A DNA stretch of 64,000 nt from Candidatus Nomurabacteria bacterium (GTDB lineage Bacteria; Patescibacteriota; Minisyncoccia; Phycocordibacterales; UBA5272), in contig JAQBRF010000004.1 of assembly GCA_028286645.1 (NCBI GenBank), positions 273,536 through 337,535 on the forward strand. Direction: 5' to 3'. The notes under the pieces are model-generated. The model was not told the origin of the DNA and did no database searches. It saw only the letters and a program-made list of their open reading frames with translations. The stretch's first letter is position 1, and every line of letters starts with the position of its first letter. Positions 5,105 to 63,937 of the stretch are shown here, one piece after another. A program made the position numbers and the translations under genes.

Positions 5105-6883
5105 TTATTCCAAAACTTCTCCAGACTGATGACTCCAAAGCTTTGCATAAAGCCCCGGCTGCTTAATAAGTTCATCGTGTGAACCGTCTTGAATAATTCT
5201 TCCCTGATCAAGAACAAGAATCCTATCTAAATGCTTAATAGTTGAAAGCCTGTGCGCAATAACAAGAGCTGTCTTATCTTTCATAAGCTCGAGCAATCCG
5301 TCTTGAATATACTTTTCCGATTCTGAATCAAGCGAACTTGTCGCCTCGTCTAATACAATTATGGGAGACTTTTTAAGAAGAGCCCGAGCTATAGCCACTC
5401 GCTGTCTTTGGCCGCCAGATAATTTAATTCCTCTTTCTCCTACCAAAGTGTCATATCCGTGCGGAAGTACAGAAATAAATTCATGAGCATGAGCGAGCTT
5501 CGAAGCTTCTGTAACTTCTTCAAGGGTAGCTTTCGGGTCGCCGTATGCTATGTTTTCAAAAAGAGTTCTATGAAATAACAAAGGCTCCTGAGGAACATAG
5601 GTAATTGCCTCTCTAAGAGATTTTTGAGTAACTTTACGAATATCTTGTCCATCAATTGATATCTCTCCATCGCTTACATCCACGAAACGAAGCAATAATT
5701 TAGTTACAGTGGTTTTCCCTCCTCCGCTTGGGCCCACAAGACCAATTTTCTGGTTACCTTTTATTTCCAGATTAAAGTTATTTAAGAAAAGTTCATCCTT
5801 ATTCCTTTCATATGTAAATTTAACGTCCTCAAATATTATGTCGCTATTTGTGACCTTCATCTTACCGGCTTTCGGCTTATCCATAACTATCGGATCATGA
5901 AGAGTAAGCTCGGTAAATTCAGCCGCTGCTCCTAAACTAGATTCTACGTTTCTATATACCCTGTTTATTTCCCAAAAGATGCGAGCTATCTGTGAGTAAT
6001 AAGAATATACGACCATCATAGTACCAACTGGCAAATTAAGTTTTATCGTAAAGTAAAATGCCATAAATAAACCGAAGACATTAGTTATTACATAAATAGG
6101 CGCAATTACTCCTTCGAAATTTAAATTTTGATAATTATATGTATCTCTATATTTAGTGACATACGAATTAACATGCTTGTTAAAAGTTTTTTGTTCCGCC
6201 TCTTCTTGAGCAAATGACTTAATTGCTAGCATATTTGTCATCGAATCTGAGAAGTTTCCAGCCATTCGGCTTTCTGCCTCATGACGCTCCGCGACCATTT
6301 TCGACCTCCTGCGGATAATCGGAACGGCAATGACTATTGTTAAAAGAATCCAAAATAACAGTGTAAAAGGAATAAGCGGAGAATACTGCCATAAAATTAT
6401 GAAAGCGAAAATTATTGGAAATACATTTGTAATGACGTTATACGCTAAGGTCTCTGTTAAATTCTCAAAACCTCTAGGGAATGCCATTCCTTTTTTTATA
6501 AGTGAACCTACAAAGTTATTTGTATAAAAATCATAGTCACGAGATATTAACTTCTTAAAAGCTTTATTATTTAAATCAGCTAGACTTGCAACTTCAAGCT
6601 TAATCATAAAATAATAACCTGCTCTCCATAACATCTCTCCCAAAAGCCAAAACCCTCCTAATGTCAATATATAAATACTTATCTGATTTACTGAATATGT
6701 ATGTGCTGCTAATTCATTAATAATTTTCGCTACTATTAATGGGGGTACGAAAGATGTAAAAATAACCCCAATAGCGGGCAGAAAGAAAGCCAATATTGCG
6801 TTTAGCTTATTTTTCTTGTATTGCCACCCATATTCTTTCAGTACCTGGATTATGGCTTCTTTAGATATAAATTTATTATCCAT
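5105..6883 (-). CDS. ABC exporter, fused permease-ATPase (MsbA/Lipid A exporter-like)
   Basis: Six TM helices, then Walker A GPSGGGKTT, signature LSGGQRQRVAIARAL and Walker B ILVLDEATS. Confidence 0.85.
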   Translation of the reverse strand: MDNKFISKEAIIQVLKEYGWQYKKNKLNAILAFFLPAIGVIFTSFVPPLIVAKIINELAAHTYSVNQISIYILTLGGFWLLGEMLWRAGYYFMIKLEVASLADLNNKAFKKLISRDYDFYTNNFVGSLIKKGMAFPRGFENLTETLAYNVITNVFPIIFAFIILWQYSPLIPFTLLFWILLTIVIAVPIIRRRSKMVAERHEAESRMAGNFSDSMTNMLAIKSFAQEEAEQKTFNKHVNSYVTKYRDTYNYQNLNFEGVIAPIYVITNVFGLFMAFYFTIKLNLPVGTMMVVYSYYSQIARIFWEINRVYRNVESSLGAAAEFTELTLHDPIVMDKPKAGKMKVTNSDIIFEDVKFTYERNKDELFLNNFNLEIKGNQKIGLVGPSGGGKTTVTKLLLRFVDVSDGEISIDGQDIRKVTQKSLREAITYVPQEPLLFHRTLFENIAYGDPKATLEEVTEASKLAHAHEFISVLPHGYDTLVGERGIKLSGGQRQRVAIARALLKKSPIIVLDEATSSLDSESEKYIQDGLLELMKDKTALVIAHRLSTIKHLDRILVLDQGRIIQDGSHDELIKQPGLYAKLWSHQSGEVLE

Positions 6884-6958: not shown

Positions 6959-7105
6959 TTACTGAGCTTCTGCTGGAGCTGGTGTCTCTTCTGCGGGAGC
7001 AACCGGAGCTTCTGCTGGAATTTCAGGAACTCCTGCTGGAGTCACTGTTACTTCTTCTCCCTCTCCAGCGACTGGATTAGTAGGTGTAGTTGTATCGTCG
7101 TTCAT
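6959..7105 (-). CDS. 48-aa acidic Pro/Ala/Glu-rich peptide (low complexity)
   Basis: ATG at 7105 to TAA at 6959 translates MNDDTTTPTNPVAGEGEEVTVTPAGVPEIPAEAPVAPAEETPAPAEAQ. The DNA carries CTGCTGGAG-type repeats. Below the 60-aa cutoff of the ORF track. Confidence 0.3.
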   Translation of the reverse strand: MNDDTTTPTNPVAGEGEEVTVTPAGVPEIPAEAPVAPAEETPAPAEAQ

Positions 7106-7149
7106 ATATTTTGTTTTAATGGCCAATAAAATACTAACTACTAGGTTAG

Positions 7150-7746
7150 CTAATCTAGTATAGCATTATTAAAGTAAAATTTCTTATATTCGACGCTTGT
7201 CATATTATTCTCTCCATAACACTCTGCAAGTGCGATATGGTCAATGATAATTGTTTCATTGATGTTTTGTGTTGTTAAATACTGCATACCTTTTTTATAT
7301 CCATCTTCTGACAAATCGGCGAATGCTAAAGTTATATGCGGGACATAGTTTACTGTTCGAGGAAGCCATGTCTCATACTTAGAAGTTATTTCATCTCTTA
7401 ATCGATTAAATAAATCCAGTAACTCCGCGCTTACTTCCACATTTATCCAGATAACATATGGAGTTATGTTGCCTTTCGCTCCCTTCCAATTTTCTATTCC
7501 ATCAAATCCTGAAATCTTTACTTTAATAGGATTTTGAGCATCTGTAAACGCCTTTAACTCTTTTTCGTAATTTGCTTGAAACTCTTCTGCTAAGGATGGC
7601 CCATCTCCTGGAGTAATATGAGGCAGCCAATCTTCTAGACATTTTCTGGATCCTGTAATTTTAGAAAGTTCTTTTTGTATTTCACGCACTTTTTTATGTT
7701 CTTCACCGCTAAGATAAGTTATCAAGGAGTAATGCTTTGTGTTCAT
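7150..7746 (-). CDS. 2H phosphoesterase superfamily protein (LigT/2'-5' RNA ligase-like)
   Basis: Two H-x-T motifs (LPHITPGD and VPHITLAF) about 90 aa apart, as in LigT/YjcG. Confidence 0.6.
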   Translation of the reverse strand: MNTKHYSLITYLSGEEHKKVREIQKELSKITGSRKCLEDWLPHITPGDGPSLAEEFQANYEKELKAFTDAQNPIKVKISGFDGIENWKGAKGNITPYVIWINVEVSAELLDLFNRLRDEITSKYETWLPRTVNYVPHITLAFADLSEDGYKKGMQYLTTQNINETIIIDHIALAECYGENNMTSVEYKKFYFNNAILD

Positions 7747-7787
7747 ATATGTCTATATTACTATTATTTATATAAAATCTAGAATTG

Positions 7788-8573
7788 CTAAATTAATCTC
7801 TTATGCGCAATTTGTAGTTTATCGTTATCAATAGTTACCACTGCATATTCGGTTGTTGGGCGGTCCGCTCCATCGTTTTCAGAAAAAGATCCCACAGTAA
7901 AGTAATCAACGCCGTTTATATTCTCATGATCTTTAAAATGCGTGTGTCCATTAAATACCGCTAAAACTTTCCCGGACTTTTCGAATACATTTCTTATCTT
8001 TTCAGACTTTAGAGGTGTGATTCGCTCTCTGGCGGCTTCCTTGAAATAAATATTTTTACTTACATCTTGCTCATAGATAGGGAAATGACAATATACAACT
8101 GTTTTCAAACTCGTTTTATTTAAATCATCTTCCAGCCAATTAATTTGATCGTCACTAAAAAGAAATGGCTCCGGAGAAACTTTTCCTTCCTCTCTATTTC
8201 CATCAATAACCACATGATGGTAACCTCCAAAATCAAAAGAGTAATAAATCTTATCCTCCCCTATTATTTTAGTTATATCATTACGGTTTAAGTTTACAAG
8301 ATCATGATTTCCTATAACATGTTTAATTGGCTTACCGCCACTTAAAATCTCTATTGCTTCTTTATATAGGATCACATCCTCTTCCTTGCTTTTTGTTTGA
8401 TGAATTAAATCTCCCATATTAATAATAAGATCACATTCGTTCATCGAATGCTGTATCTTATTTTTAAAATCTGAAACTAACTCTCCATACTGATTTACAT
8501 GATCCGGCCCGCCGCGAGCTTTGTAGTTAGTATTTAATCCATAATGGATATCAGTAATTAGAAAAATTTTCAT
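7788..8573 (-). CDS. calcineurin-like metallophosphoesterase
   Basis: Motifs DIHYG, GDLIH, GNHD and GHTHF. Confidence 0.8.
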   Translation of the reverse strand: MKIFLITDIHYGLNTNYKARGGPDHVNQYGELVSDFKNKIQHSMNECDLIINMGDLIHQTKSKEEDVILYKEAIEILSGGKPIKHVIGNHDLVNLNRNDITKIIGEDKIYYSFDFGGYHHVVIDGNREEGKVSPEPFLFSDDQINWLEDDLNKTSLKTVVYCHFPIYEQDVSKNIYFKEAARERITPLKSEKIRNVFEKSGKVLAVFNGHTHFKDHENINGVDYFTVGSFSENDGADRPTTEYAVVTIDNDKLQIAHKRLI

Positions 8574-8587
8574 TTTAAGATATTTTT

Positions 8588-9112
8588 CTAAATCCTATCA
8601 TTCGGATCAACACATGACTCATTGAATATCTTTCTAGATTCTTCTGTAATATTTTCTTCTGCGGTTTTAGTAAGCATTACACCCGCTTCTTCAAATCTTT
8701 TTTCTACGCCACTCCCTGACTTTGCGTTGTCAGTTCCGTACACTACATGCTTAATTCCTGCATTAATTATATTCGTTACGCAGTCTCCGTATTTTTCGCC
8801 GGGTCCGCCAGGAGTTCTTTTCGCACAAGGAATGATAGTTGTATACATGATATCTTCATTTGAAATAGTTATATTCTTTGCCTCTGCATCTTTTATAGCA
8901 GCATACTCTGCATGCCAGCCTTCGTTATTGCTAAATCCTTCTGCTATTATTTCTCCATTTCTAACAAGGCAGGCCGAAACTATCCCCTTTTTATCTTCGG
9001 AATATGAAGCCAATTTGAAAAGATGGTCGAATATTTCCTGGTCTTTCATATGAATAATATTACTCTTTTTATTAAAAATGGCAAATTGATAAAAGGCGGA
9101 CTTTAAGATCAC
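8588..9112 (-). CDS. CMP/dCMP-type zinc deaminase (true start probably at Met 9049)
   Basis: HAEYAAI (H-A-E zinc ligand) and PCAKRTPGG...GDC (C-x-x-C-type pair). Confidence 0.65.
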   Translation of the reverse strand: MILKSAFYQFAIFNKKSNIIHMKDQEIFDHLFKLASYSEDKKGIVSACLVRNGEIIAEGFSNNEGWHAEYAAIKDAEAKNITISNEDIMYTTIIPCAKRTPGGPGEKYGDCVTNIINAGIKHVVYGTDNAKSGSGVEKRFEEAGVMLTKTAEENITEESRKIFNESCVDPNDRI

Positions 9113-9139
9113 GATCTTCTTGTTTTTTTATAAATAATC

Positions 9140-9940
9140 TTAAAAGTGCCCCATTAATCTGGCCCCATATATTTTAATAAACTCAAAACATATATAATTG
9201 AACCCCTCTTCTGATTTGAAATAGTTTTCTCTGGTATATTTAGATGACGGAACAGTATGCCTTATTACTTTAGGATTCCTGGAAGCACCTGCCTTAAAAG
9301 TAAAATAAGCACGCCTCATGTGATATGGAAGAGTTATAATAATGACTTTCGACGGTAGCATATCTTTCTCCTTTAAAATACGATAAGAATTTACTACATT
9401 CTCTGGAGTATTTTTTGCTTCTTTTTCTAATATTATCGCTGAAGCGGGGACACCTCCTTTTATTGCTAACTTTTCATAATATTCGGCTTCTGAAATATCA
9501 TCATCTTCCATGTATGAGGCTTTTTGACCAGTGAAAAGCAAATGTGGAGCGTAACCACCTTTATATAAATTAATAGCTTCATTAACTCTATCTATACCCG
9601 CTCCGCCAAATACGAAAATTAAATCTGCTTTTTCAAGTGGATCAGATTCTGATAAATAATCCCAAGCTTTATAAAGTGCGCTCAACAACTCTTCTTTTAC
9701 TTCTGTTGTGTTTATAGCATTAAATGCTTTATTTATATTCTCTTTGATTATTTCTGAGTTTAGGTTTTCTAGATTTATTTGAAAAAGAAAATCATCTGTT
9801 ATATTTAAAAGCTTAAAAATATTATTTAGTATCTCGAAATCTATATTCTCCTTATTATCATTCTTAATTAATTCTCCTACATCTTTTATATACTTTTTAT
9901 CCGTAGAAATATGTGGTCGATACAGAGGGTCTTCTTTCAT
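9140..9940 (-). CDS. YdcF/ElyC-like DUF218 protein (second DUF218 paralogue)
   Basis: DLIFVFGGAG...LLFTGQK...IIITLPYHMRRA fits the DUF218 core. Confidence 0.55.
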   Translation of the reverse strand: MKEDPLYRPHISTDKKYIKDVGELIKNDNKENIDFEILNNIFKLLNITDDFLFQINLENLNSEIIKENINKAFNAINTTEVKEELLSALYKAWDYLSESDPLEKADLIFVFGGAGIDRVNEAINLYKGGYAPHLLFTGQKASYMEDDDISEAEYYEKLAIKGGVPASAIILEKEAKNTPENVVNSYRILKEKDMLPSKVIIITLPYHMRRAYFTFKAGASRNPKVIRHTVPSSKYTRENYFKSEEGFNYICFEFIKIYGARLMGHF

Positions 9941-55408: not shown

Positions 55409-56437
55409 TTATGCCAATGTGTAATCTCCGGCTACTTTTCTGAAATATTTTGAATTTTGCAAGTTAACGAGGATTGTATTTGGCTTAACAATTCTCTTTG
55501 TAAGCACTCTTTTGATGATCTCCTCTTTTGAAAGAGGTCTGCCTGATTCTTTAAGTACTTCTGCGATAACATCTCGGACAACTCCGCCTGTGTGGCCCCA
55601 GTCTTTAAGACCATACATTCCACGCCCCACTAAAACAAAGCGAGGATCCTTAATAAGCTCGTTATGGCAGGTTGCAACATGAGCCTTCTTTCCAAAGGTT
55701 TTATTAATTTCCAAAGCAACTTCCTTAAAGTGCATGGGCTCTCCTCGGCGGCGCATTATTAAGTATGCATAATCTTTAATTCCTCGAGCTTTAACATGAG
55801 GAGATGAAGTTCTTCCCCATTCATTTAACTGATTTTTACCTATCACCTTAGAAAGCGCTAAATATCTGTAAATAACTTCTTTGTTACCTTTATATTCAGA
55901 AATAAGATCAGATAGATGTGTCATGAATCGATTGAAAATCTCTTCTTCCGTAACTAAATCTTTCTCACTGATAGAGCTGTATAACTTATTTAAAGCCTCT
56001 CGTACATTCGTGGCTGTTTTTTCATCAATAGTCCAGTGATACTTAAAAGCGTCATCTTCCTTATGCTTTTTAAATTCATCGCTTAATGCTAAATAAAGAT
56101 TGATATGGTTTTGAACTACAGGATCTTTAGAAATATGTTTCATGAGGTGTTCCTCTGAAACTACACCGCCAAGCTCCTTGACGATTTTCTTAAGTTCTTC
56201 AAATATGAATTGATGTTCTCTATATTCCTTAGATTTCTTAATTGTAGAAAGAGCGAAGTTTTCAATCTGACGAACTCGCTCACGAGTAATGTCATAAGTC
56301 TTACCGATGGCTTCGAGGGTCATGCGATTCTCTCCTTCTAGACCATAACGATTAACCACGATCTCTCGAGTTCGCGGATTAAGCGTCGTTAGAAGCTTTT
56401 TTGAAACGGTTTTTGGCTTGAAAGTGATACTAGACAT
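55409..56437 (-). CDS. sigma-70 region-4-like HTH domain protein with a ~270-aa C-terminal extension of unknown function
   Basis: N-terminal LNPRTREIVVNRYGLEGENRMTLEAIGKTYDITRERVRQIENFAL matches the sigma70 r4 consensus. No region 2 is present. Confidence 0.5.
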   Translation of the reverse strand: MSSITFKPKTVSKKLLTTLNPRTREIVVNRYGLEGENRMTLEAIGKTYDITRERVRQIENFALSTIKKSKEYREHQFIFEELKKIVKELGGVVSEEHLMKHISKDPVVQNHINLYLALSDEFKKHKEDDAFKYHWTIDEKTATNVREALNKLYSSISEKDLVTEEEIFNRFMTHLSDLISEYKGNKEVIYRYLALSKVIGKNQLNEWGRTSSPHVKARGIKDYAYLIMRRRGEPMHFKEVALEINKTFGKKAHVATCHNELIKDPRFVLVGRGMYGLKDWGHTGGVVRDVIAEVLKESGRPLSKEEIIKRVLTKRIVKPNTILVNLQNSKYFRKVAGDYTLA

Positions 56438-56490: not shown

Positions 56491-59358
56491 TCAAATCACT
56501 ATATTTATAAGCCTATTTTGCACGTAAATTACCTTTTCAGGAATCTTATCCCCAACATACTTTTGGTATATTTCGTGTTTTTGGGCTCCTTCTAGGGCCG
56601 TCTTTTCATCAGAATCCCGAGGAATTTCATACGTTCCTCTCATTTTTCCTCCTATCTGGAGAGTTATCGTAACTATTTCTTCCATTAAGAACTTTTCATC
56701 ATACTTCGGCCAATTACTCTTATGAACAGAGGCACTTTCCCCCATCTCCCCCCAAATATATTCCGTGATATGGGGAGCAAAAGGGGCAAGTATCTTAAGA
56801 AGCGAAATATAATCTTCTTTTGTAAAAGAGGCCTTCTCCATTTCATTTACAAGAATCATCATTTGAGATACAGCAGTGTTAAATTTAAAGCTTTCGATAT
56901 CTTCTCCGACTTTCTTTATGGTTTTATGAAGCATCGATTGAACTTCACTTTCTCCCGCTATTTTTCCCTTTAAGGCAAATACTCTGTCTAGAAACTTATC
57001 TGATCCCTTGATGCTCGTAGTGCTCCAAGAGGCTGTTTGATCAAAAGGCGCCATAAACATTTCATAGACCCTGAGAGTGTCTGCTCCATATTCCTTGACC
57101 ACATCATCAGGGTTGATAACATTTCCCCATCTCTTACTCATCTTCCTTCCGTCTTCCGCCAATATAAAACCCAGGAATTCTAATCGTGAAAATGGTTCAA
57201 TTGTAGATACTACGCCAATATCATATAAGAACTTATGCCAGAACCTTGCATATATCAGATGCCTTGTCGCATGATCCCCTCCCACATAAACATCTACAGG
57301 AAGCCATGCTTTTTCAATGCTCTTATCAATAAGCGTATTTGTATTATGCGGATCTGCGAATCTTAAATAATACCAAGATGACCCAGCCCATTGCGGCATG
57401 GTATTTGTTTCTCTCTTAAAAATCTTTCCTTCAGGAGATGACTTGAATTTCCCTTCTTCCGTTATAAATCCCTTTACTTCGACCCATTCTTTTATATCTG
57501 CCAAAGGAGATTCACCGTTACCGGTAGGCTCATAACTTTCGACTTCCGGCAATATAACAGGAAGCTCGCTATCATCTACCATATATACTTTATCTTCTTC
57601 GTCACGGACCACAGGAAATGGTTCTCCCCAGTATCTTTGTCGGGCAAAGACCCAGTCTTCCAGTTTATATTTTTTTACTTTAACCCCCCCTAAATCATTT
57701 ACAATCTTTTCCTTAGCATCACCGCTTTCCATTCCATCATACTGATTTGAATTAACAACTATCCCAGTACCGGTATATGCAAAGTCTTGCTTGAACTTCA
57801 ATCTTTCAAGCCAAAAAGGAAGTTCTGAATTAATCATCTTTCCAGGAACAAAATCTTTTTCATCAATCCAAAGTATTTCATTTCCTTCATCTTCTGCTAT
57901 AGGCACTTGGGTATCTCCTATAAGTTCAAAATAAAGTCCGGTACTAATCGAAATGCGATTTTCATCTTTATGAGCGGCGAAATATCCTGCTTGAACCGGA
58001 TCTCCTAACTTCCTCTTAAATTCAATATCAATATATCCAGTCTCTTCTTTTATCTCTCTCTTTGCAGCTTCTATAAGGTCTTCACCCTCTTCTATTCCCC
58101 CGATCACGACCGTATCCCATCCATGCTTTTGATTTCTTAAAATTAAATACTTCTTATTTTTAGGATCATAAACAATAGCATGCACATTAGTCCTGGTAAC
58201 GGTCTTTTTATCATCTCTTGGAGAATTTACTGTGTCTATAACATAAGGGCGTATCACTTCTTTTATCGGCAAATTATATTTCTTTGCAAATTCAAAATCC
58301 CTCTCATCGTGAGCTGGTACCGCCATAATTGCACCTGTGCCCACCCCTCCTAAAACATAATTAGCTATCCATACAGGAACTTTCTCTCCATTTGCTGGGT
58401 TTTGTGCGTAGATATTTGTAAATATTCCTTTTTTCTCAGGAATAATTGAATAATCTTTTTCGGTTATTTTTCGCTCTTCAAGCAATTCATCTATAAAACT
58501 CTTTACATCCGCATTTGCCTTCCATCCCATATTAAGCCAGCTATTAGCAAGTAGAGGAGATATCGCTACATACGTCACGCCAAATATAGTATCAGAACGC
58601 GTAGTAAATATTTTTACATTATGCTCTCCGTGGTGCTGGCCAGATATCCCTGTAAGATTAAAAGTAAACTCAGCTCCCTCAGATTTGCCTATCCAATTCT
58701 TTTGAGCAAGTTTAATTCCTTCCGGCCAATTAAGCTCATCTAAATCTTTAATTAATCTGTCAGCATAATCTGTGATTTTAAGCACCCACTGGCGAATGGG
58801 CTTTTTCTCTACAGGGGTATGGCATCGTTCACATTCCCCATTTTCCACATCTTCATTTGCCAAACCAGTTTTACATGTCGGGCACCAGTTAATTGGCTCG
58901 TTTGATTCATATGCAAGACCCTTCTCATACATCTTAGTAAAAATCCATTGGGTCCACTTATAAAATTCCGGATCTGTGGTATTTATTTCTCGAGACCAGT
59001 CATAATCTAGTCCAATATTTGCAAGCTGGCTCTTAAAATTGGCTATATTTTTTTCAACAGCAGCGCGCGGATGAACCTTATTTTTTAAAGCAAATTGTTC
59101 TGCTGGAAGTCCGAAAGCGTCCCAGCCCATTGGATGAAGTACATCAAATCCGTTCATCCTTTTAAATCTAGAGTAAATATCTGTTGCTATATAACCCTTA
59201 GGATGGCCTACATGCAAACCTTCGCCAGAGGGATACGGGAACATGTCCAAAATATAGACCTTTTTACTTTCTGGAAATTCTTTTGTTTTGTATATGCCAC
59301 TTTCTTGCCACTTTTTTTCAAGCTCTTTGTCTATCTTCTCGTGATCATAGGATTTCAT
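56491..59358 (-). CDS. leuS: leucyl-tRNA synthetase carrying an inserted NUDIX hydrolase domain
   Basis: HVGHPKGY (HIGH), editing-domain TTRSDT and AVPAHDERD, KMSKR (KMSKS), anticodon-binding C-terminus. Between IKEVI and TGTGIVVNS (aa ~371-528, nt ~57775-58248) lies a domain with a perfect Nudix box GGIEEGEDLIEAAKREIKEETGY. Confidence 0.9.
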   Translation of the reverse strand: MKSYDHEKIDKELEKKWQESGIYKTKEFPESKKVYILDMFPYPSGEGLHVGHPKGYIATDIYSRFKRMNGFDVLHPMGWDAFGLPAEQFALKNKVHPRAAVEKNIANFKSQLANIGLDYDWSREINTTDPEFYKWTQWIFTKMYEKGLAYESNEPINWCPTCKTGLANEDVENGECERCHTPVEKKPIRQWVLKITDYADRLIKDLDELNWPEGIKLAQKNWIGKSEGAEFTFNLTGISGQHHGEHNVKIFTTRSDTIFGVTYVAISPLLANSWLNMGWKANADVKSFIDELLEERKITEKDYSIIPEKKGIFTNIYAQNPANGEKVPVWIANYVLGGVGTGAIMAVPAHDERDFEFAKKYNLPIKEVIRPYVIDTVNSPRDDKKTVTRTNVHAIVYDPKNKKYLILRNQKHGWDTVVIGGIEEGEDLIEAAKREIKEETGYIDIEFKRKLGDPVQAGYFAAHKDENRISISTGLYFELIGDTQVPIAEDEGNEILWIDEKDFVPGKMINSELPFWLERLKFKQDFAYTGTGIVVNSNQYDGMESGDAKEKIVNDLGGVKVKKYKLEDWVFARQRYWGEPFPVVRDEEDKVYMVDDSELPVILPEVESYEPTGNGESPLADIKEWVEVKGFITEEGKFKSSPEGKIFKRETNTMPQWAGSSWYYLRFADPHNTNTLIDKSIEKAWLPVDVYVGGDHATRHLIYARFWHKFLYDIGVVSTIEPFSRLEFLGFILAEDGRKMSKRWGNVINPDDVVKEYGADTLRVYEMFMAPFDQTASWSTTSIKGSDKFLDRVFALKGKIAGESEVQSMLHKTIKKVGEDIESFKFNTAVSQMMILVNEMEKASFTKEDYISLLKILAPFAPHITEYIWGEMGESASVHKSNWPKYDEKFLMEEIVTITLQIGGKMRGTYEIPRDSDEKTALEGAQKHEIYQKYVGDKIPEKVIYVQNRLINIVI

Positions 59359-59435: not shown

Positions 59436-60560
59436 TTATCTTACGCCGGAATACATCGATGCATCAATAATTCTCTTGAAACATGTTTCTCCTGTGCCGT
59501 GATTCCAAAAGGGTGATTGGTCCCCTTCGTAATAATAATTTGACACCGAGTAGAAACTGTCTGTTGCTACGCTCTTTGCCAGAGGCACATTCATACCTCT
59601 GTTGTCATACTCACGAACAGTATCAAATGTGGCGCATATTTCGAAGATGGCTGGAGTTACAAGTTCTTTCTTATTTAATGTGTAATTCATTTTTATTACT
59701 GGCTGCTGAATCACTTTATATGTATAAGATTCCTTTGTAACAGGATCTGCGGGTACTGTGTAGCCGGCAAATGAGTTATTAAGATCATCTGTTGTTTGGG
59801 GAAGTTTTTCTGTCGTCTGGAAACGAGTATAAACTTCTTGCTGAATACGCGATAAATCCGAGAGACGAGTATTGTCTAACTTCTTTGCTCTCATTTCTGC
59901 TGGAGAGCCAATTGTTATAACACTCCACGCCACAGCCCATATTACAAGAATCGTAGCGATTATAGTGGAAATAACCGGAGCAACGGTCTTAACAGCATAA
60001 TCTCTCCTTAGAGAGTAGAAATAGTAGGCAAATACAGCTAGAGCCACTACAAATACCGCGAGAGCCTTGTATCCGAAACGCACAGATAGCTCGCCTCCTA
60101 AATACGTATAAATTATAGAAACAAGCGTCCCTATTAAAGTACATATGGTAATAAACAGCGCTGCATAAATCATAAGTCTTCGCACTGGTAAATCTCTTTT
60201 ATATATAAATTTATTTATATCGCGCGCAACAAACCATGAAAGAAGCAGGTAAACGGGATACATAACGACAAGAGATGCAATGGCAAGTCTTATATCGCTA
60301 TTATAAATATCCGCATACTGATACCCTGAAATAATATCCGGGAATCTTTTATCAATTGCCGCAAATATCATTTGTAAAAGATTCGTCACACTGACTACTA
60401 AGGTTATAACTATTCCTAAATAAACAAATACATCAAGTGCTTTTGTTTTGGTTTCATTCATGTGATTACTTTTACTTATAAGAGAATAAACTAAATATAA
60501 ACCCCCAAATATAACTATTAAAATGATAAGGCCGACTATTGCCAAGATTGTTGCTATCAT
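59436..60560 (-). CDS. polytopic membrane protein with a C-terminal extracytoplasmic domain (hypothetical)
   Basis: About 7 TM helices, then a roughly 170-aa soluble domain. Confidence 0.4.
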   Translation of the reverse strand: MIATILAIVGLIILIVIFGGLYLVYSLISKSNHMNETKTKALDVFVYLGIVITLVVSVTNLLQMIFAAIDKRFPDIISGYQYADIYNSDIRLAIASLVVMYPVYLLLSWFVARDINKFIYKRDLPVRRLMIYAALFITICTLIGTLVSIIYTYLGGELSVRFGYKALAVFVVALAVFAYYFYSLRRDYAVKTVAPVISTIIATILVIWAVAWSVITIGSPAEMRAKKLDNTRLSDLSRIQQEVYTRFQTTEKLPQTTDDLNNSFAGYTVPADPVTKESYTYKVIQQPVIKMNYTLNKKELVTPAIFEICATFDTVREYDNRGMNVPLAKSVATDSFYSVSNYYYEGDQSPFWNHGTGETCFKRIIDASMYSGVR

Positions 60561-60598
60561 CCGGCCATTCTAACACTTTATATGTTATAGTAAAATTT

Positions 60599-61057
60599 AT
60601 GAAAGATCCCCGGGAAAATGACCTTGAAAATATAGCCCTTTCCATAACTCGGGCGGTTGGATCAGTCGCCTCAGTTATAGTTCATACCCTTCTTTTTATA
60701 GGGGCATTTGTTTTGGTTTTTTTAGGAGTTAATTTCGATCGCGTTCTTCTGGTTCTTACAACAATAGTGTCGCTCGAAGCTATTTACCTTTCTATCTTTA
60801 TCCAGATCAGTGTAAATCATCAGGCAAAAGCTCTCGCCAGCGTTGAAAAAGATGTTGAAGATATTGCGGAGGGAGTTGAAGAAATAGCAGAAGATGTAGA
60901 AGAAATTCAGGAAGACGTTGAGGGTATTCAAGAAGATATGGAAGACATTCAAGAAAATGTCGAAGAAATTCAAGAAAACGTGGAAGACCTGCAGGAAGCC
61001 GACGAATTATTAGAGAATGATTCTGAATCGGACTTTCTAAAAAAGGTAAACAGCTAA
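60599..61057 (+). CDS. DUF1003-family membrane protein with a C-terminal acidic 7-aa tandem-repeat tail
   Basis: VSLEAIYLSIFIQISVNHQAK matches the DUF1003 core. Tail (VEDIAEG/VEEIAED/VEEIQED...) repeats seven times. Start chosen at MKDPREN. Confidence 0.55.
   Translation: MKDPRENDLENIALSITRAVGSVASVIVHTLLFIGAFVLVFLGVNFDRVLLVLTTIVSLEAIYLSIFIQISVNHQAKALASVEKDVEDIAEGVEEIAEDVEEIQEDVEGIQEDMEDIQENVEEIQENVEDLQEADELLENDSESDFLKKVNS
60835..60990 (+). repeat. 21-bp imperfect tandem repeat, about 7 copies (GAAGAAATTCAAGAAAATGTC-like)
   Basis: It encodes the acidic heptad tail of the DUF1003 protein. Confidence 0.6.
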
Positions 61058-61059
61058 AA

Positions 61060-61398
61060 TTATTCAAATACATGCAATACCCAGTTTATTATTGAGAGCA
61101 CTATTGAAAACCAAATTGCCATAAGTAAAGATGGGATATGAAATCCTGGAACGATAGAGCTGGCGAGAAGGACCATTAATCCATTTATTACAAAAGAAAA
61201 CAGCCCGAGAGTAAGAATGGTGATCGGAAGAGAAACAATGTGAAGTACTGGCTTAAGAGTATGGTTAACCACGGCGAGAACTATTGCTACCAATAATGCA
61301 GTAAGCCCCGTGCTCCATGCTAAAACAATCGGAACCCCAACTTTGGTGATATAGCTGGCTATTAAAACTGCGGCTGTTCTGATTAGAATGTAAATCAT
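61060..61398 (-). CDS. PF04020-type (phage holin family 4 / YvlD-like) small membrane protein
   Basis: LPITILTLGLFSFVINGLMVLLASSIVPGF fits the family consensus. 112 aa, 3-4 TM helices. Confidence 0.55.
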   Translation of the reverse strand: MIYILIRTAAVLIASYITKVGVPIVLAWSTGLTALLVAIVLAVVNHTLKPVLHIVSLPITILTLGLFSFVINGLMVLLASSIVPGFHIPSLLMAIWFSIVLSIINWVLHVFE

Positions 61399-61403
61399 GG
61401 AAT

Positions 61404-61510
61404 TAGATTTTAGATTATAGATGATGCAGGACTCTCTAATTATCCAACATCTACAGGTTAATGTCTAATGGCTTATGTATTTTTTTGGATTTATCTAAAA
61501 TCTACAATCT
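61404..61510. mobile_element. MITE-like ~105-bp element with ATTAGATTTTAGAT / ATCTAAAATCTACAATCTAAT inverted termini (family member Y)
   Basis: Terminal inverted repeats share the TAGATTTTAGA core with the element at 48812..49056. Confidence 0.35.
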
Positions 61511-61515
61511 AATAT

Positions 61516-61770
61516 TTAGTTTATGGCCCCCTCTGACTTCAAAAGGGTAAGTTTAGCTTTGCTTCCTCCCCTATTATAATTCCCAATTTTTCCATCACTT
61601 CTTATAACTCTGTGGCATGGAATATTTAAATCAAAATTTTTGCTCATTAAATTTCCCACCGCTCGCGATGCACCTGGATGGCCGGCTTTTGTAGCGACCT
61701 CTTTATAAGTCATCGTCTTTCCTTTAGGAATAGTCGCTACGATTTTATTTATTTTGTCTCGGAAATTCAT
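61516..61770 (-). CDS. methylated-DNA-protein-cysteine methyltransferase, DNA-binding/active-site domain only (MGMT_C)
   Basis: HPGASRAVGNLMSKN...IPCHRVIRSDGKIGNY carries the PCHR active-site Cys. 84 aa. Confidence 0.7.
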   Translation of the reverse strand: MNFRDKINKIVATIPKGKTMTYKEVATKAGHPGASRAVGNLMSKNFDLNIPCHRVIRSDGKIGNYNRGGSKAKLTLLKSEGAIN

Positions 61771-61788
61771 AATGGATAGTTATAGATT

Positions 61789-62178
61789 TTATTTTGTAGA
61801 TGTTAGTAATGCCTGTACTTCTTTTAATTCTTCTTCTGTTGCTGGAGTTTGATTCCTTTCATCAATTTGATAAGGCCCGGTAGTCGGAACTAAATGTATA
61901 TGTGCATGTGGAACTAAATAACCATCAACTATAACCCCGATTCTTGCAGAATTTAATTTTTTCTTTAAAAGTTGGGAGATGTCTTTACAAGCGCTCATTA
62001 GATTGAGATATACATCCTCCGGCAGATCAAATAAATCATCAACTTCTATTTTCGGCACTACCAATGTATGCCCTCTTTGTATTGGGTTAATATCTAAAAA
62101 AGCACAAACATCCTCATCTTCGTATATTTTATATCCCGGGATTTCTTCATTTATAATTTTAGTGAAAATCGTACTCAT
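61789..62178 (-). CDS. HIT-family (histidine triad) nucleotide hydrolase
   Basis: HAHIHLVP triad. N-terminal IFTKIINEEIP. Confidence 0.85.
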   Translation of the reverse strand: MSTIFTKIINEEIPGYKIYEDEDVCAFLDINPIQRGHTLVVPKIEVDDLFDLPEDVYLNLMSACKDISQLLKKKLNSARIGVIVDGYLVPHAHIHLVPTTGPYQIDERNQTPATEEELKEVQALLTSTK

Positions 62179-62190
62179 GTTTTTAGTTTA

Positions 62191-62568
62191 CTATTTATTT
62201 TCTTCAAAATCCAAACACACTGAATTCATGCAATATCGCTTGCCTGTCTCAGTTGGTCCGTCATCAAAAACATGGCCTAAGTGGGAATGGCATAGAGCGC
62301 ACCTAGCTTCTGTTCTCTTCATTCCCAATTTAGTATCGTCTACATACTCAATAGCTCCGGGAAGCGCTATATCAAATGAAGGCCACCCAGTTCCAGAATC
62401 AAATTTCGTGTCAGATGAGAATAGCGGAGTTCCACATACTTTACATAAAAACCTACCCTCTCTTTTTTCATTTAGAAGCGCTCCTGTAAAAGGTGTTTCT
62501 GTTCCGCCTTCAAGCAAAACTTTCTTTTCTTCATCTGATAATTGTTTTTTTCTTTCTTCTATATCCAT
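62191..62568 (-). CDS. msrB: peptide-methionine (R)-S-oxide reductase MsrB
   Basis: CxxC...CxxC zinc site and the RCALCHSHLGHVFDDGP catalytic motif. Confidence 0.9.
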   Translation of the reverse strand: MDIEERKKQLSDEEKKVLLEGGTETPFTGALLNEKREGRFLCKVCGTPLFSSDTKFDSGTGWPSFDIALPGAIEYVDDTKLGMKRTEARCALCHSHLGHVFDDGPTETGKRYCMNSVCLDFEENK

Positions 62569-62570
62569 TA

Positions 62571-62612
62571 AAACAGTTTACAGGTTGTAGTTACAAGTTT
62601 CCAGTAAGGAAT
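62571..62612 (-). promoter_or_regulatory. conserved ~38-nt leader element abutting the msrB start codon (copy 2 of 2)
   Basis: Minus strand reads CTTACTGGAAACTTGTAACTACAACCTGTAAACTGTTTTA-ATG. Compare 36774..36813. Confidence 0.45.
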
Positions 62613-62627
62613 TATTGGAGAAATAAG

Positions 62628-63173
62628 CTAAATTAACTTTCTAACTTGCGCGATGCGCTCTTCTCGTGAACCTGAAATAACTTTAATAGTTATATTATTT
62701 TTCCGTGCCAGATCGAATAATACTTTTAAAAAATTATTATTTACATTGTCTATATATGATTTATCTAAATCTCTCGTGCCTTTATTAACCAAAGGTACAG
62801 ATAGAGCTGTTGGGATAAATAAATACATGTCTACTGTTTGTAGTGTATCTTTCAGGAAGGTTTCTGTCTCATCCACGAACCACTTTGGAATATTACCCGC
62901 TTCGTACTGCACATACGTATAAACATAATTATCTACCATACATCTATCAAATATTACGTTATGCTCGGTATTTTGCCGCATTTGCTCAAAAAGGTAATCC
63001 CTTATTTCTTTCTGGGTCTCAAGGGTAGTAAGTTGATTTATATTTAAACCTTTCTCTTTTACAATATCTCTGTGTGTTTTTTCAGGAGTCTGATAGTTTG
63101 GAAATTCCTTTAAAAAATCTTCAATGAATGAAGTTTTCCCTGTGTTCTGTGGTCCTGTTACCGCTATTCTCAT
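62628..63173 (-). CDS. P-loop NTPase (AAA_28/NadR-kinase-like)
   Basis: Walker A IAVTGPQNTGKTSF. Start set at MRIAV to avoid a 32-nt overlap with msrA; the track ORF extends to 63233. Confidence 0.45.
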   Translation of the reverse strand: MRIAVTGPQNTGKTSFIEDFLKEFPNYQTPEKTHRDIVKEKGLNINQLTTLETQKEIRDYLFEQMRQNTEHNVIFDRCMVDNYVYTYVQYEAGNIPKWFVDETETFLKDTLQTVDMYLFIPTALSVPLVNKGTRDLDKSYIDNVNNNFLKVLFDLARKNNITIKVISGSREERIAQVRKLI

Positions 63174-63201
63174 ACACTCAAGTATAACAGGAAGAAAATT
63201 C

Positions 63202-63789
63202 TTATTCCTTCCAATTAATTTTCTTTTCTTCACGTATTTGGCAGGTTCTGTTCACGAAAGAATCGCGACCGCTTCCTACCCTATACGCATTATAGTGTGT
63301 TGGATTATTTTCTGCATAATTCTGATGATATTCCTCCGCTTTATAAAATTCTTTTCTAGGAAGAATTTCTATAACGGCCGGCTTATCATAAACTTTCGAA
63401 TAATCTAATTCTTGGATTACATTTTCTGCGATGCGTTTTTCTTCTTCACTTTCATAAAAGATTGCAGTTTTATAACTTTCACCACGATCTGCAAACTGAC
63501 CTCCATCATCTATGGGATCAATGTGGTCTATAAAAAATTGCAGAAGCTTTTTATAGCTTGTGACTCCTCCTTTTACATTCGGACTGCTGTCCTCAGCATC
63601 TCCTCGGCCTCCCTCGTCGACATATTCCACCAAAACTACCTCTCGGTGGCCTTTGTGATTTTCATAAGTAGGCGTTGTGGTATCTCCGCCAGAATATCCA
63701 GAAATAACTGACATCACACCTATAGCCTCCTTTAAATCATGTTCAACACACCAGAAGCATCCCCCTCCTAAAATTAGAGATTTTATCAT
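63202..63789 (-). CDS. msrA: peptide-methionine (S)-S-oxide reductase MsrA
   Basis: GGGCFWCVE active-site motif. 195 aa. Confidence 0.9.
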   Translation of the reverse strand: MIKSLILGGGCFWCVEHDLKEAIGVMSVISGYSGGDTTTPTYENHKGHREVVLVEYVDEGGRGDAEDSSPNVKGGVTSYKKLLQFFIDHIDPIDDGGQFADRGESYKTAIFYESEEEKRIAENVIQELDYSKVYDKPAVIEILPRKEFYKAEEYHQNYAENNPTHYNAYRVGSGRDSFVNRTCQIREEKKINWKE

Positions 63790-63850: not shown

Positions 63851-63933
63851 GCGTAGGTGGTGGAGTGGTCAATCACAACAGACTGTAAATCTGTCGCCTT
63901 CGGGCTTCGCTGGTTCAAATCCAGCCCTACGCA
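63851..63933 (+). tRNA. tRNA-Tyr (anticodon GUA) with a long variable arm
   Basis: GCGTAGG...GTGGAGTGGTCAATCAC...ACAGA-CTGTAAA-TCTGT, a 14-nt variable stem-loop, then GCTGG-TTCAAAT-CCAGC-CCTACGC-A. Confidence 0.85.
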
Positions 63934-63937
63934 CATG

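Follow-up and report, generated by a model that had tools for sequence, protein, structure and literature searches.

Organisation of the leuS gene

We analysed a 64,000-nucleotide stretch of DNA (hereafter the window) from a contig of Candidatus Nomurabacteria bacterium (JAQBRF010000004.1), in which the gene leuS encodes a leucyl-tRNA synthetase (LeuRS) that carries a Nudix hydrolase domain within its CP1 editing domain. The following features were located in this gene, with the evidence for each in brackets.

56491..59358, minus strand: leuS, bacterial-type leucyl-tRNA synthetase, 955 aa (single open reading frame; TIGR00396; 1h3n alignment; identity to P0010)
59203..59214, minus strand: HIGH motif (HVGH), aa 49-52 (motif located; invariant among relatives)
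58249..58701, minus strand: N-terminal part of the CP1 editing domain, aa 220-370 (PF13603)
58588-58605, minus strand: TTRSDT, CP1 editing motif in the N-terminal part
58297-58314, minus strand: AHDERD, CP1 editing motif in the N-terminal part
57787..58248, minus strand: inserted segment in a CP1 surface loop, aa 371-524, 154 aa (1h3n alignment; PF13603 match with the insert deleted; AlphaFold2 models)
57838..58194, minus strand: Pfam NUDIX match, aa 389-507 (PF00293)
58033..58101, minus strand: Nudix box GGIEEGEDLIEAAKREIKEETGY, aa 420-442, with E426, R434, E435, E438, E439 and G441 (motif located; family conservation)
57955..57984, minus strand: subfamily signature YFAAHKDENR, aa 459-468 (family alignments; also in ProRS inserts)
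57664..57786, minus strand: C-terminal part of the CP1 editing domain after the insert, aa 525 to ~565 (PF13603 match with the insert deleted; 1h3n alignment)
57130..57144, minus strand: KMSKS motif (KMSKR), aa 739-743 (motif located; conserved among relatives)

The leuS reading frame is unbroken over its 955 codons, with zero frameshifts, and its product is 100% identical to NCBI entry P0010, which comes from a 514-kb ‘Candidatus Nomurabacteria’ contig of a metagenome-assembled genome (MAG). The protein scored 915.1 bits against the bacterial LeuRS model TIGR00396 (leuS_bact), well above its NCBIfam equivalog cut-off of 548.4, in two stretches broken at approximately residue 378. Pfam recognised a class I catalytic core, the PF13603 editing domain, a NUDIX domain and an anticodon-binding domain, and homology to Thermus thermophilus (Tth) LeuRS (1h3n) extended over the whole length (634 bits). 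The HIGH and KMSKS signatures of class I synthetases are both present and are invariant or nearly invariant in 89 relatives, and CP1 retains its threonine-rich motif and the conserved Asp of AHDxRD. Together with the ZN1 cysteines, these motifs are common to the window protein and to bacterial LeuRS of known structure (Tth 1h3n/2byt, E. coli 4aq7/4arc). In contrast to the Tth enzyme, the window LeuRS lacks the leucine-specific domain; Tth residues ~580-638 are without a counterpart in the alignment. From its sequence, the gene is thus predicted to encode a working LeuRS, with synthetic site, zinc module and CP1 editing site intact.

The Nudix domain is nested inside CP1

In the alignment with 1h3n, residues 1-370 of the window LeuRS correspond to Tth 1-363 and residues 525-735 to Tth 374-580. 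These breakpoints place 154 aa (371-524) where the Tth enzyme has a CP1 loop of about 10 residues (Tth 364-373). We take the CP1 editing domain of Tth LeuRS to span residues ~224-417, so that the insertion point falls inside CP1. Profile matching led to the same position. On the full protein, the PF13603 match (189.8 bits) covered residues 220-373, or profile positions 1-144 of 185, and ended at the insert; on a construct without residues 373-522, the match ran in a single stretch from profile position 9 to 183 of 185 (181.6 bits). Because the editing-domain profile becomes contiguous once the insert is deleted, the Nudix domain is nested inside CP1.

The loop that received the insert is a hypervariable spot: in close insert-less relatives it is between 2 and 31 residues long, and in some of them a further ~25 CP1 residues are deleted there. 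Insert-less LeuRS of 774-794 aa (P0085, P0081, P0092, P0097, P0099, P0102 and P0106) have lost these ~25 residues from the C-terminal part of CP1; they correspond to the YTGTGIVVNSNQYDG...EKIV segment, and the relative at locus L084 is one example. The residues of the editing site are constant. T252, T253, R254, D256, T257, D351, R353 and D354 were invariant across 89 LeuRS sequences with or without the insert, as were the synthetic-site motifs. Thus, the Nudix domain adds to editing and does not replace it.

The insert is a complete Nudix domain with intact catalytic residues

The Pfam NUDIX model PF00293 matched residues 389-507 of the full protein with 49.7 bits (E 4.9e-13) and the insert alone with 52.3 bits, against a gathering threshold of 21.1. 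The 23-residue box GGIEEGEDLIEAAKREIKEETGY fits the pattern GX5EX7REUXEEXGU exactly, and a strict box is found in 80 of 87 insert-bearing relatives. Among 25 diverse family members, which are 22-60% identical to the window insert, G420, E435, E438, E439 and G441 are invariant, and G421, E426, R434, R389, K464 and W497 are nearly so. Downstream of the box, the subfamily has a signature of its own, [YF][FY]AxHKxxNR, which begins 17 residues after the box in the window insert and whose Y89, F90, A91, H93, K94, E96, N97 and R98 are invariant in alignment A3.

Structure prediction agreed with the profile matches. An AlphaFold2 model of the whole protein, built on the 89-sequence alignment, had a mean predicted local distance difference test score (pLDDT) of 86.9 and a predicted template modelling score (pTM) of 0.77, with the insert at pLDDT 86-96. 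The isolated insert, modelled with the 25 diverse homologues, reached a pLDDT of 95.3 and a pTM of 0.88. In the predicted model, the box lies on a loop-helix-loop of an alpha/beta/alpha Nudix fold and the Nudix-box helix is where it is expected, and Foldseek matched the model to Nudix structures in the PDB with a probability of 1.00.

We also compared the insert and the LeuRS core with those of same-architecture relatives (L009-L011). Synonymous sites were saturated (proportion of synonymous differences, pS, 0.72-0.89), so that only the proportion of non-synonymous differences (pN) is comparable and no formal dN/dS can be given. The pN of the insert (0.21-0.23) was no higher than that of the core (0.23-0.24), which indicates that purifying selection acts on the insert about as strongly as on the LeuRS core. 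It is more AT-rich than the rest of leuS (GC 0.355 versus 0.389; GC at third codon positions 0.25 versus 0.34), a difference too mild to decide for a recent horizontal acquisition. Taken by its sequence, the Nudix domain is complete, has intact catalytic residues and is apparently active. A divergent type of insert, in which the Nudix-box Arg is replaced by Lys (e.g. GGGVEEGDTELASVYKETEEESGY), occupies the same site in P0034, P0035 and P0059, and the 1169-aa P0082 has the standard and the Arg-to-Lys types in tandem at one site.

A preliminary description of this locus, made from the sequence alone, had called the LeuRS otherwise canonical and the Nudix box textbook, and had estimated an insertion of ~155 aa (aa ~371-528). 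HVGH, TTRSDT, AHDERD and KMSKR do lie in their places, the box fit is exact, and the estimate differs little from the 154 aa obtained here. The alignment to reference LeuRS confirmed a true insert, as opposed to a normal LeuRS element with a chance Nudix-like string, and the confident AlphaFold2 prediction bore out the fold. The statement that the Nudix domain follows CP1 was wrong; both the 1h3n alignment and the PF13603 match of the insert-deleted construct place it inside.

Distribution in LeuRS and ProRS

We scanned one genome per GTDB species with a profile of the insert. At least 291 species-representative genomes encode a relative, and we inspected the best 80 of these loci. Of the 80, 76 have the Nudix domain inside an uninterrupted LeuRS reading frame, and the remaining four either run into a contig end or may be split. 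Named loci among the 80 are almost all Patescibacteria (Nomura-, Giovannoni-, Vogel-, Taylor-, Moran-, Uhr-, Wildermuth-, Yanofsky- and Wolfebacteria, and Paceibacterota), and many others have only ‘uncultured’ or placeholder names. The survey of related LeuRS proposed in the preliminary description thus showed the insertion to be widespread. Two of the 80 have other labels, probably as a result of mis-binning. Several LeuRS-Nudix loci have labels from elsewhere (L070, ‘Candidatus Fimivivens sp.’; L082, ‘Thermodesulfobacteriota bacterium’; others titled ‘uncultured Gammaproteobacteria’ or ‘uncultured Saccharibacteria’); given their sequence relationships, the non-Patescibacteria labels probably reflect binning contamination or placeholder names. 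The frame is interrupted in L034 (3589-4725 and 5292-6680), L006 and L027, and in L034 it ends directly after a Nudix domain that follows residue ~211; these could be split LeuRS, pseudogenes or sequencing errors.

The same architecture occurs in dozens of protein clusters from NCBI, JGI, ENA and Logan. A hidden Markov model (HMM) search of 1.84 billion cluster representatives returned 168 at E<=1e-30. Among the matches listed, 146 representatives could be classified: 107 of them are linked to LeuRS, 25 stand alone as proteins of 126-207 aa, and the other 14 fall in neither group. Most of the 120 best LeuRS clusters are 943-985 aa long and contain PF00293, and the others are 774-847 aa long and lack it.

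The Nudix subfamily is found at three sites in LeuRS: at ~207, just before CP1; at ~370, the site in the window; and at ~646. In a non-dereplicated set of 180 LeuRS, 120 carry it at 370 only and 34 have none; the combinations 207x2+370 (9), 370+646 (6) and 207+370 (5) follow, with 207 only (4), 370x2 (1) and 207x2 (1) rarer still. In the Nudix-domain tree the copies group by insertion site, which indicates a small number of separate insertions that were then inherited vertically. Extra domains at ~207 come in one or two copies, giving up to three per synthetase, and a few proteins have the ~207 site only; carriers include P0108, P0110, P0113, P0114, P0116, P0120, P0121 and P0125 (about 1290-1522 aa) and loci L020, L022, L025, L028, L032, L043, L046, L047 and L074. 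A Nudix domain at ~646 is present in P0035, P0038, P0048, P0051, P0053 and P0055 (about 1124 aa).

The subfamily also occurs in a second aminoacyl-tRNA synthetase (aaRS). P0255 is a class II prolyl-tRNA synthetase (ProRS; PF00587, PF03129 and ProRS-C_1) that carries it between the anticodon-binding domain and the C-terminal domain. There are five such ProRS-Nudix clusters, whose inserts have the subfamily signature, and the closest ProRS that lack an insert carry the source names Nanoarchaeota or Woesearchaeota. Going by these names, the ProRS hosts are apparently archaeal (DPANN). Entries noted in this connection are P0255, P0276-P0279 and P0165, with loci L090 (3720-5744) and L091 (5593-7524); in L090, a MazG gene and a further, separate Nudix gene are close by. 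Earlier work reported both aaRS gene exchange between the candidate phyla radiation (CPR) and DPANN and the fusion of domains to CPR aaRS (PMC5370408).

Some relatives stand alone. The free-standing homologue P0003, 50% identical to the insert, is encoded directly upstream of an insert-less leuS (L001; Nudix gene 6001-6492, leuS 7071-9494); the 579-bp gap between the two genes had no Rfam match, and another, unrelated Nudix gene is located 2 kb beyond it on the upstream side. L001 was the only case of such a neighbourhood: it was absent for P0004 and for three insert-less leuS neighbourhoods, and a conserved Nudix-leuS linkage in insert-less genomes was therefore set aside. Small complete open reading frames of about 217-388 aa, on short, seemingly very AT-rich contigs, combine a degenerate C-terminal CP1 piece with a Nudix domain nested at the same place (P0007, P0008, P0009, P0231, P0232, P0234, P0247 and P0260; L003 205-1077; L092 754-1593). 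They stop where CP1 would rejoin the catalytic core; the threonine-rich motif is missing from them, and their AHD is changed to HNE or AHN. Judged by sequence, they look like free-standing paralogues; we know of no free-standing LeuRS-CP1 paralogue described before. As separate genes for CP1-fragment proteins with a Nudix domain, P0007, P0008, P0232 and P0247 resemble the trans-editing, aaRS-derived AlaX and YbaK/ProX, from which they differ in that the threonine-rich editing motif is lost.

Taken together, we have very little doubt about the fold, the intact catalytic residues, the nesting in CP1, the wide vertical conservation, the purifying selection and the repeated association with aaRS. 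The Nudix subfamily appears distinct and, in the collections searched, almost exclusively confined to aaRS of ultra-small prokaryotes. This lineage-wide, multi-site architecture, present also in a second aaRS, is the main point, and one that the preliminary description missed.

Nearest characterised relatives

We next compared the subfamily with Nudix families of known function. The RppH models (NCBIfam PRK00714) were matched by 24 of the 25 family members, all far below cut-off (20-25 bits against equivalog cut-offs of 116-259), which places the subfamily outside RppH/NudH proper. The model for YtkD, an RNA deprotection pyrophosphohydrolase, was also matched. Profile matches to solved chains included Ap4A hydrolases, Dcp2, AvrM14 and NUDT12. 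The best Foldseek match was an Enterococcus faecalis protein (2azw; template modelling score, TM, 0.75), followed by E. coli RppH (TM 0.65-0.70) and then MutT1/Rv2985, Ap4A hydrolases and NUDT15. 2azw (UniProt Q836H1) is a free-standing protein of 148 aa, 19% identical to the window domain, which in contrast is embedded in LeuRS; its function is listed as undetermined (PMC5389931).

On this evidence, the nearest characterised relatives appear to be RppH/NudH, ApnA hydrolases and decapping enzymes, all below the family thresholds. RppH/NudH and the ApnA hydrolases (Ndx1, Rv2985/MutT1, and the lupin, C. elegans and Aquifex enzymes) are 13-24% identical to the window domain. Scores of the subfamily are 4-5 times below the NCBIfam equivalog cut-offs, and it differs from these families in its HKxxNR signature and in being embedded in aaRS. 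With no family threshold reached and the best structural match functionally uncharacterised, curated families and solved structures did not assign a substrate. Y459, the first residue of the signature and 17 residues beyond the box, is Y, F or W in most members and G in some; a Tyr ~16-18 residues after the Nudix box is a specificity motif of Ap4A/ApnA hydrolases, and is not diagnostic.

Among synthetases, one parallel is NCBIfam NF040702 (isoleucine--tRNA ligase, N-acetyltransferase domain-containing), likewise a class Ia synthetase with an unrelated small enzymatic domain. Here both host and guest are different, the guest is nested in the editing domain, several sites are used, and a class II aaRS is also involved.

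A phage origin or a role in defence was considered and dropped. The family profile found no relatives in IMG/VR viral contigs, where a CP1-like/Nudix mini-protein gave one weak match, and the only PADLOC signal was the candidate model PDC-S07, matched weakly (19 bits) by 9 of 25 members, which does not place the subfamily in a defence system.

Gene neighbourhood

The genes around leuS in the window are as follows.

55409-56437: sigma-r4/HARE-HTH gene, downstream of leuS
within 59436-63789, minus strand: upstream block of a DUF5671-like membrane protein, a DUF1003-like protein, a holin-4-like protein, an MGMT-like DNA-binding protein and a HIT hydrolase
within 59436-63789, minus strand: beyond the HIT gene, a putative MsrB-like open reading frame, an uncharacterised 201-aa open reading frame and a putative MsrA-like open reading frame (assigned by eye)
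63851-63934: tRNA-Tyr, after the putative MsrA-like open reading frame

The block from the HIT gene to leuS, together with the sigma-r4/HARE-HTH gene, is syntenic with loci L084-L089. At the other end of the window, a Nudix gene on the minus strand (1-362) is cut by the window edge and has an unusually long box region, RLPGGKVYDSLAEYNSALNEEVNINEAAKQAAIKEAKEEAGIEV; it does not match the HMM of the insert subfamily even at E<=10. The preliminary description had seen a streamlined nucleotide-salvage logic in leuS and its Nudix and HIT neighbours. This view loses its basis, since the Nudix gene at 1-362 is outside the subfamily and the gene order from HIT to leuS recurs in L084, whose LeuRS has no insert.

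Possible functions of the nested Nudix domain

The best explanation of the whole, to which we give a probability of roughly 0.45, is a LeuRS with a nested Nudix domain that acts as an RppH/NudH-like pyrophosphatase tethered to an aaRS. RppH/NudH is an RNA pyrophosphohydrolase that also hydrolyses Ap4A, Ap5A and Np4A caps; aaRS make Ap4A and bind RNA, which makes a tethered activity of this kind the best-supported mechanism. The module would hydrolyse Ap4A-type dinucleoside polyphosphates, products of the aaRS themselves, and/or 5'-polyphosphate or Np4-capped RNA ends. The synthetase would be the tether, and a housekeeping activity would be made and placed together with the aaRS. The substrate class itself, polyphosphate-bridged nucleotides and/or such RNA ends, we put forward somewhat more tentatively than the tethered pyrophosphatase. 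An Ap4A-type substrate is a reasonable guess because NudH/RppH and Ap4A/ApnA hydrolases are indeed among the nearest characterised relatives, as the preliminary description had anticipated. Its other proposals fared less well. Hydrolysis of mis-activated adenylates misfits Nudix chemistry, because aminoacyl-adenylates are acyl-phosphate anhydrides and not diphosphates, whereas the classical substrates are nucleoside-diphosphate-X compounds. Nothing in our analysis supports a role in pre-transfer editing, as the idea of additional proofreading would have it, and ApaH, named there among the Nudix enzymes, is not one.

Several observations weigh against the tethered pyrophosphatase, and most of them favour its main rival, in which an ordinary house-cleaning Nudix enzyme of any specificity was caught in a tolerant surface loop of a gene that is essential and expressed constitutively, and persists through gene economy or co-expression in a reduced genome, uncoupled from leucylation, editing and tRNA. 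Locus L084 shares its gene order with the window (HIT, holin-like, DUF1003, DUF5671, leuS, sigma-r4/HARE-HTH) and a 794-aa LeuRS without the insert, and no Nudix gene lies within about 4 kb of the insert-less leuS there or in two other contexts. Since such close insert-less relatives exist, the Nudix module is dispensable for LeuRS. In a rough neighbour-joining tree of the LeuRS core, insert-less and insert-bearing proteins are interleaved (17 parsimony changes). A docking interface or coupling might have been visible through co-varying core positions; no LeuRS core position co-varied sharply with the insert, the best score of 0.55 being apparently phylogenetic noise. The loop is hypervariable, as described above, and other enzymes are nested in LeuRS loops of relatives: an ASCH domain and an alpha/beta-hydrolase (Ser_hydrolase-like) at ~236-245, a HAD phosphatase and a SAM methyltransferase at ~640-646, and, in P0078, an ANT(2'')-like nucleotidyltransferase precisely where the window LeuRS has its insert. 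That unrelated enzymes are also inserted suggests that LeuRS loops are simply permissive, and, within this lineage, LeuRS looks like a hotspot of nested domains; further relatives with nested-domain LeuRS are P0046, P0120, P0011/P0065 and P0114/P0116. LeuRS is also not known, from the older biochemical literature, as one of the strongest Ap4A producers. A random passenger, however, does not account for the host specificity, because a single Nudix subfamily appears repeatedly, at three sites in LeuRS and again in ProRS, an unrelated class II enzyme; among the representatives listed, those linked to LeuRS (107 of 146) far outnumber the ~25 that are free-standing, and the other Nudix gene of the window is outside the subfamily. 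We therefore regard this rival as rather unlikely, if the most serious one. A non-catalytic module, i.e. a nucleotide sensor or a structural or tRNA-binding appendage like the Nudix domains of NrtR and MRP-L46, is very improbable: among members only 22-60% identical, E435, E438, E439 and G441 never vary and E426 and R434 hardly do, the box is strict in most inserts, and this conservation is typical of active Nudix hydrolases. An assembly chimera, a fusion by frameshift or a chance Nudix-like string in a normal LeuRS element can practically be dismissed. No positive evidence speaks for an artefact beyond the source being a MAG, where chimeras occur, and against it stand the uninterrupted reading frame, the recurrence of the architecture across species-level loci (76 of the best 80) and in dozens of clusters, the Pfam E-value of 4.9e-13, the confident predicted fold and the purifying selection on the insert.

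The Nudix domain might instead act on the acceptor end of the tRNA that LeuRS, and the archaeal-looking ProRS, presents to it. Like RppH and NudC, it could remove a 5'-triphosphate, an NAD or an Np4 cap; alternatively, it could cleave a pyrophosphate at the 3' terminus, such as toxSAS toxins put on the CCA end. Either activity would add a step of RNA repair or maturation to the synthetase. RppH is the curated family most consistently matched, with YtkD matched as well, and RppH, Dcp2 and AvrM14 are among the nearest solved relatives. CP1, which carries the Nudix domain, takes up the tRNA 3' end in editing, both hosts bind tRNA, and the HAD, esterase-fold, ASCH, methyltransferase and pol-beta-type nucleotidyltransferase domains inserted in related LeuRS are of types seen in RNA-end chemistry. 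Against this, the proposal is wholly inferential, only tRNALeu or tRNAPro would be acted on, RNase P processing normally leaves bacterial tRNAs with a 5'-monophosphate, and there is no defence-system signal beyond the weak PDC-S07 match; we consider it improbable. A broader form, which we think no more probable, is a hitherto unrecognised nucleotide-level quality-control or repair activity built into the synthetases of ultra-small symbionts and acting on what the synthetase holds, whether bound tRNA ends (5'-polyphosphate, Np4 or NAD caps, toxin-added 3'-pyrophosphate) or the Ap4A alarmone that it makes. On the mobile CP1, or beside the anticodon-binding domain in ProRS, the Nudix domain could conceivably be gated by the conformational cycle of aminoacylation and editing. 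If this were true, LeuRS would be a signalling or repair hub besides a charging enzyme, and the HAD phosphatase, esterase fold, ASCH, methyltransferase and nucleotidyltransferase domains would be further modules of the same toolkit.

Significance

Extra domains are a classic route by which aaRS acquire new functions, documented mainly in eukaryotes, and aaRS with extra catalytic domains are already known. A Nudix domain nested in an aaRS is apparently undescribed. Full-text literature searches turned up no account of a Nudix domain joined to LeuRS or another aaRS, and tRNA synthetases are absent from a review of the Nudix clan. Precomputed Pfam annotations do show the architecture, and the sources name the proteins simply LeuRS. 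For annotation, this means that proteins labelled just ‘leucine--tRNA ligase’ contain a second predicted enzyme and that fragments are mislabelled ‘MutT’; the variation in LeuRS length could also distort marker-gene alignments of Patescibacteria.

A catalytic pyrophosphatase fold, with predicted activity, thus lies inside the proofreading domain of an essential synthetase in hundreds of Patescibacteria species. It entered LeuRS independently at three sites, and it also entered a class II ProRS, the closest relatives of which carry the names of DPANN archaea. Two aaRS classes and, apparently, two domains of life are involved, and this recurrence argues for a real link of the Nudix subfamily to tRNA charging in minimal genomes. 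The question is biochemically tractable, with a single protein and clean natural plus and minus controls. The architecture points to a possible link between aaRS and the metabolism of Ap4A or RNA caps, and it offers an example of how reduced genomes pack functions through domain nesting.

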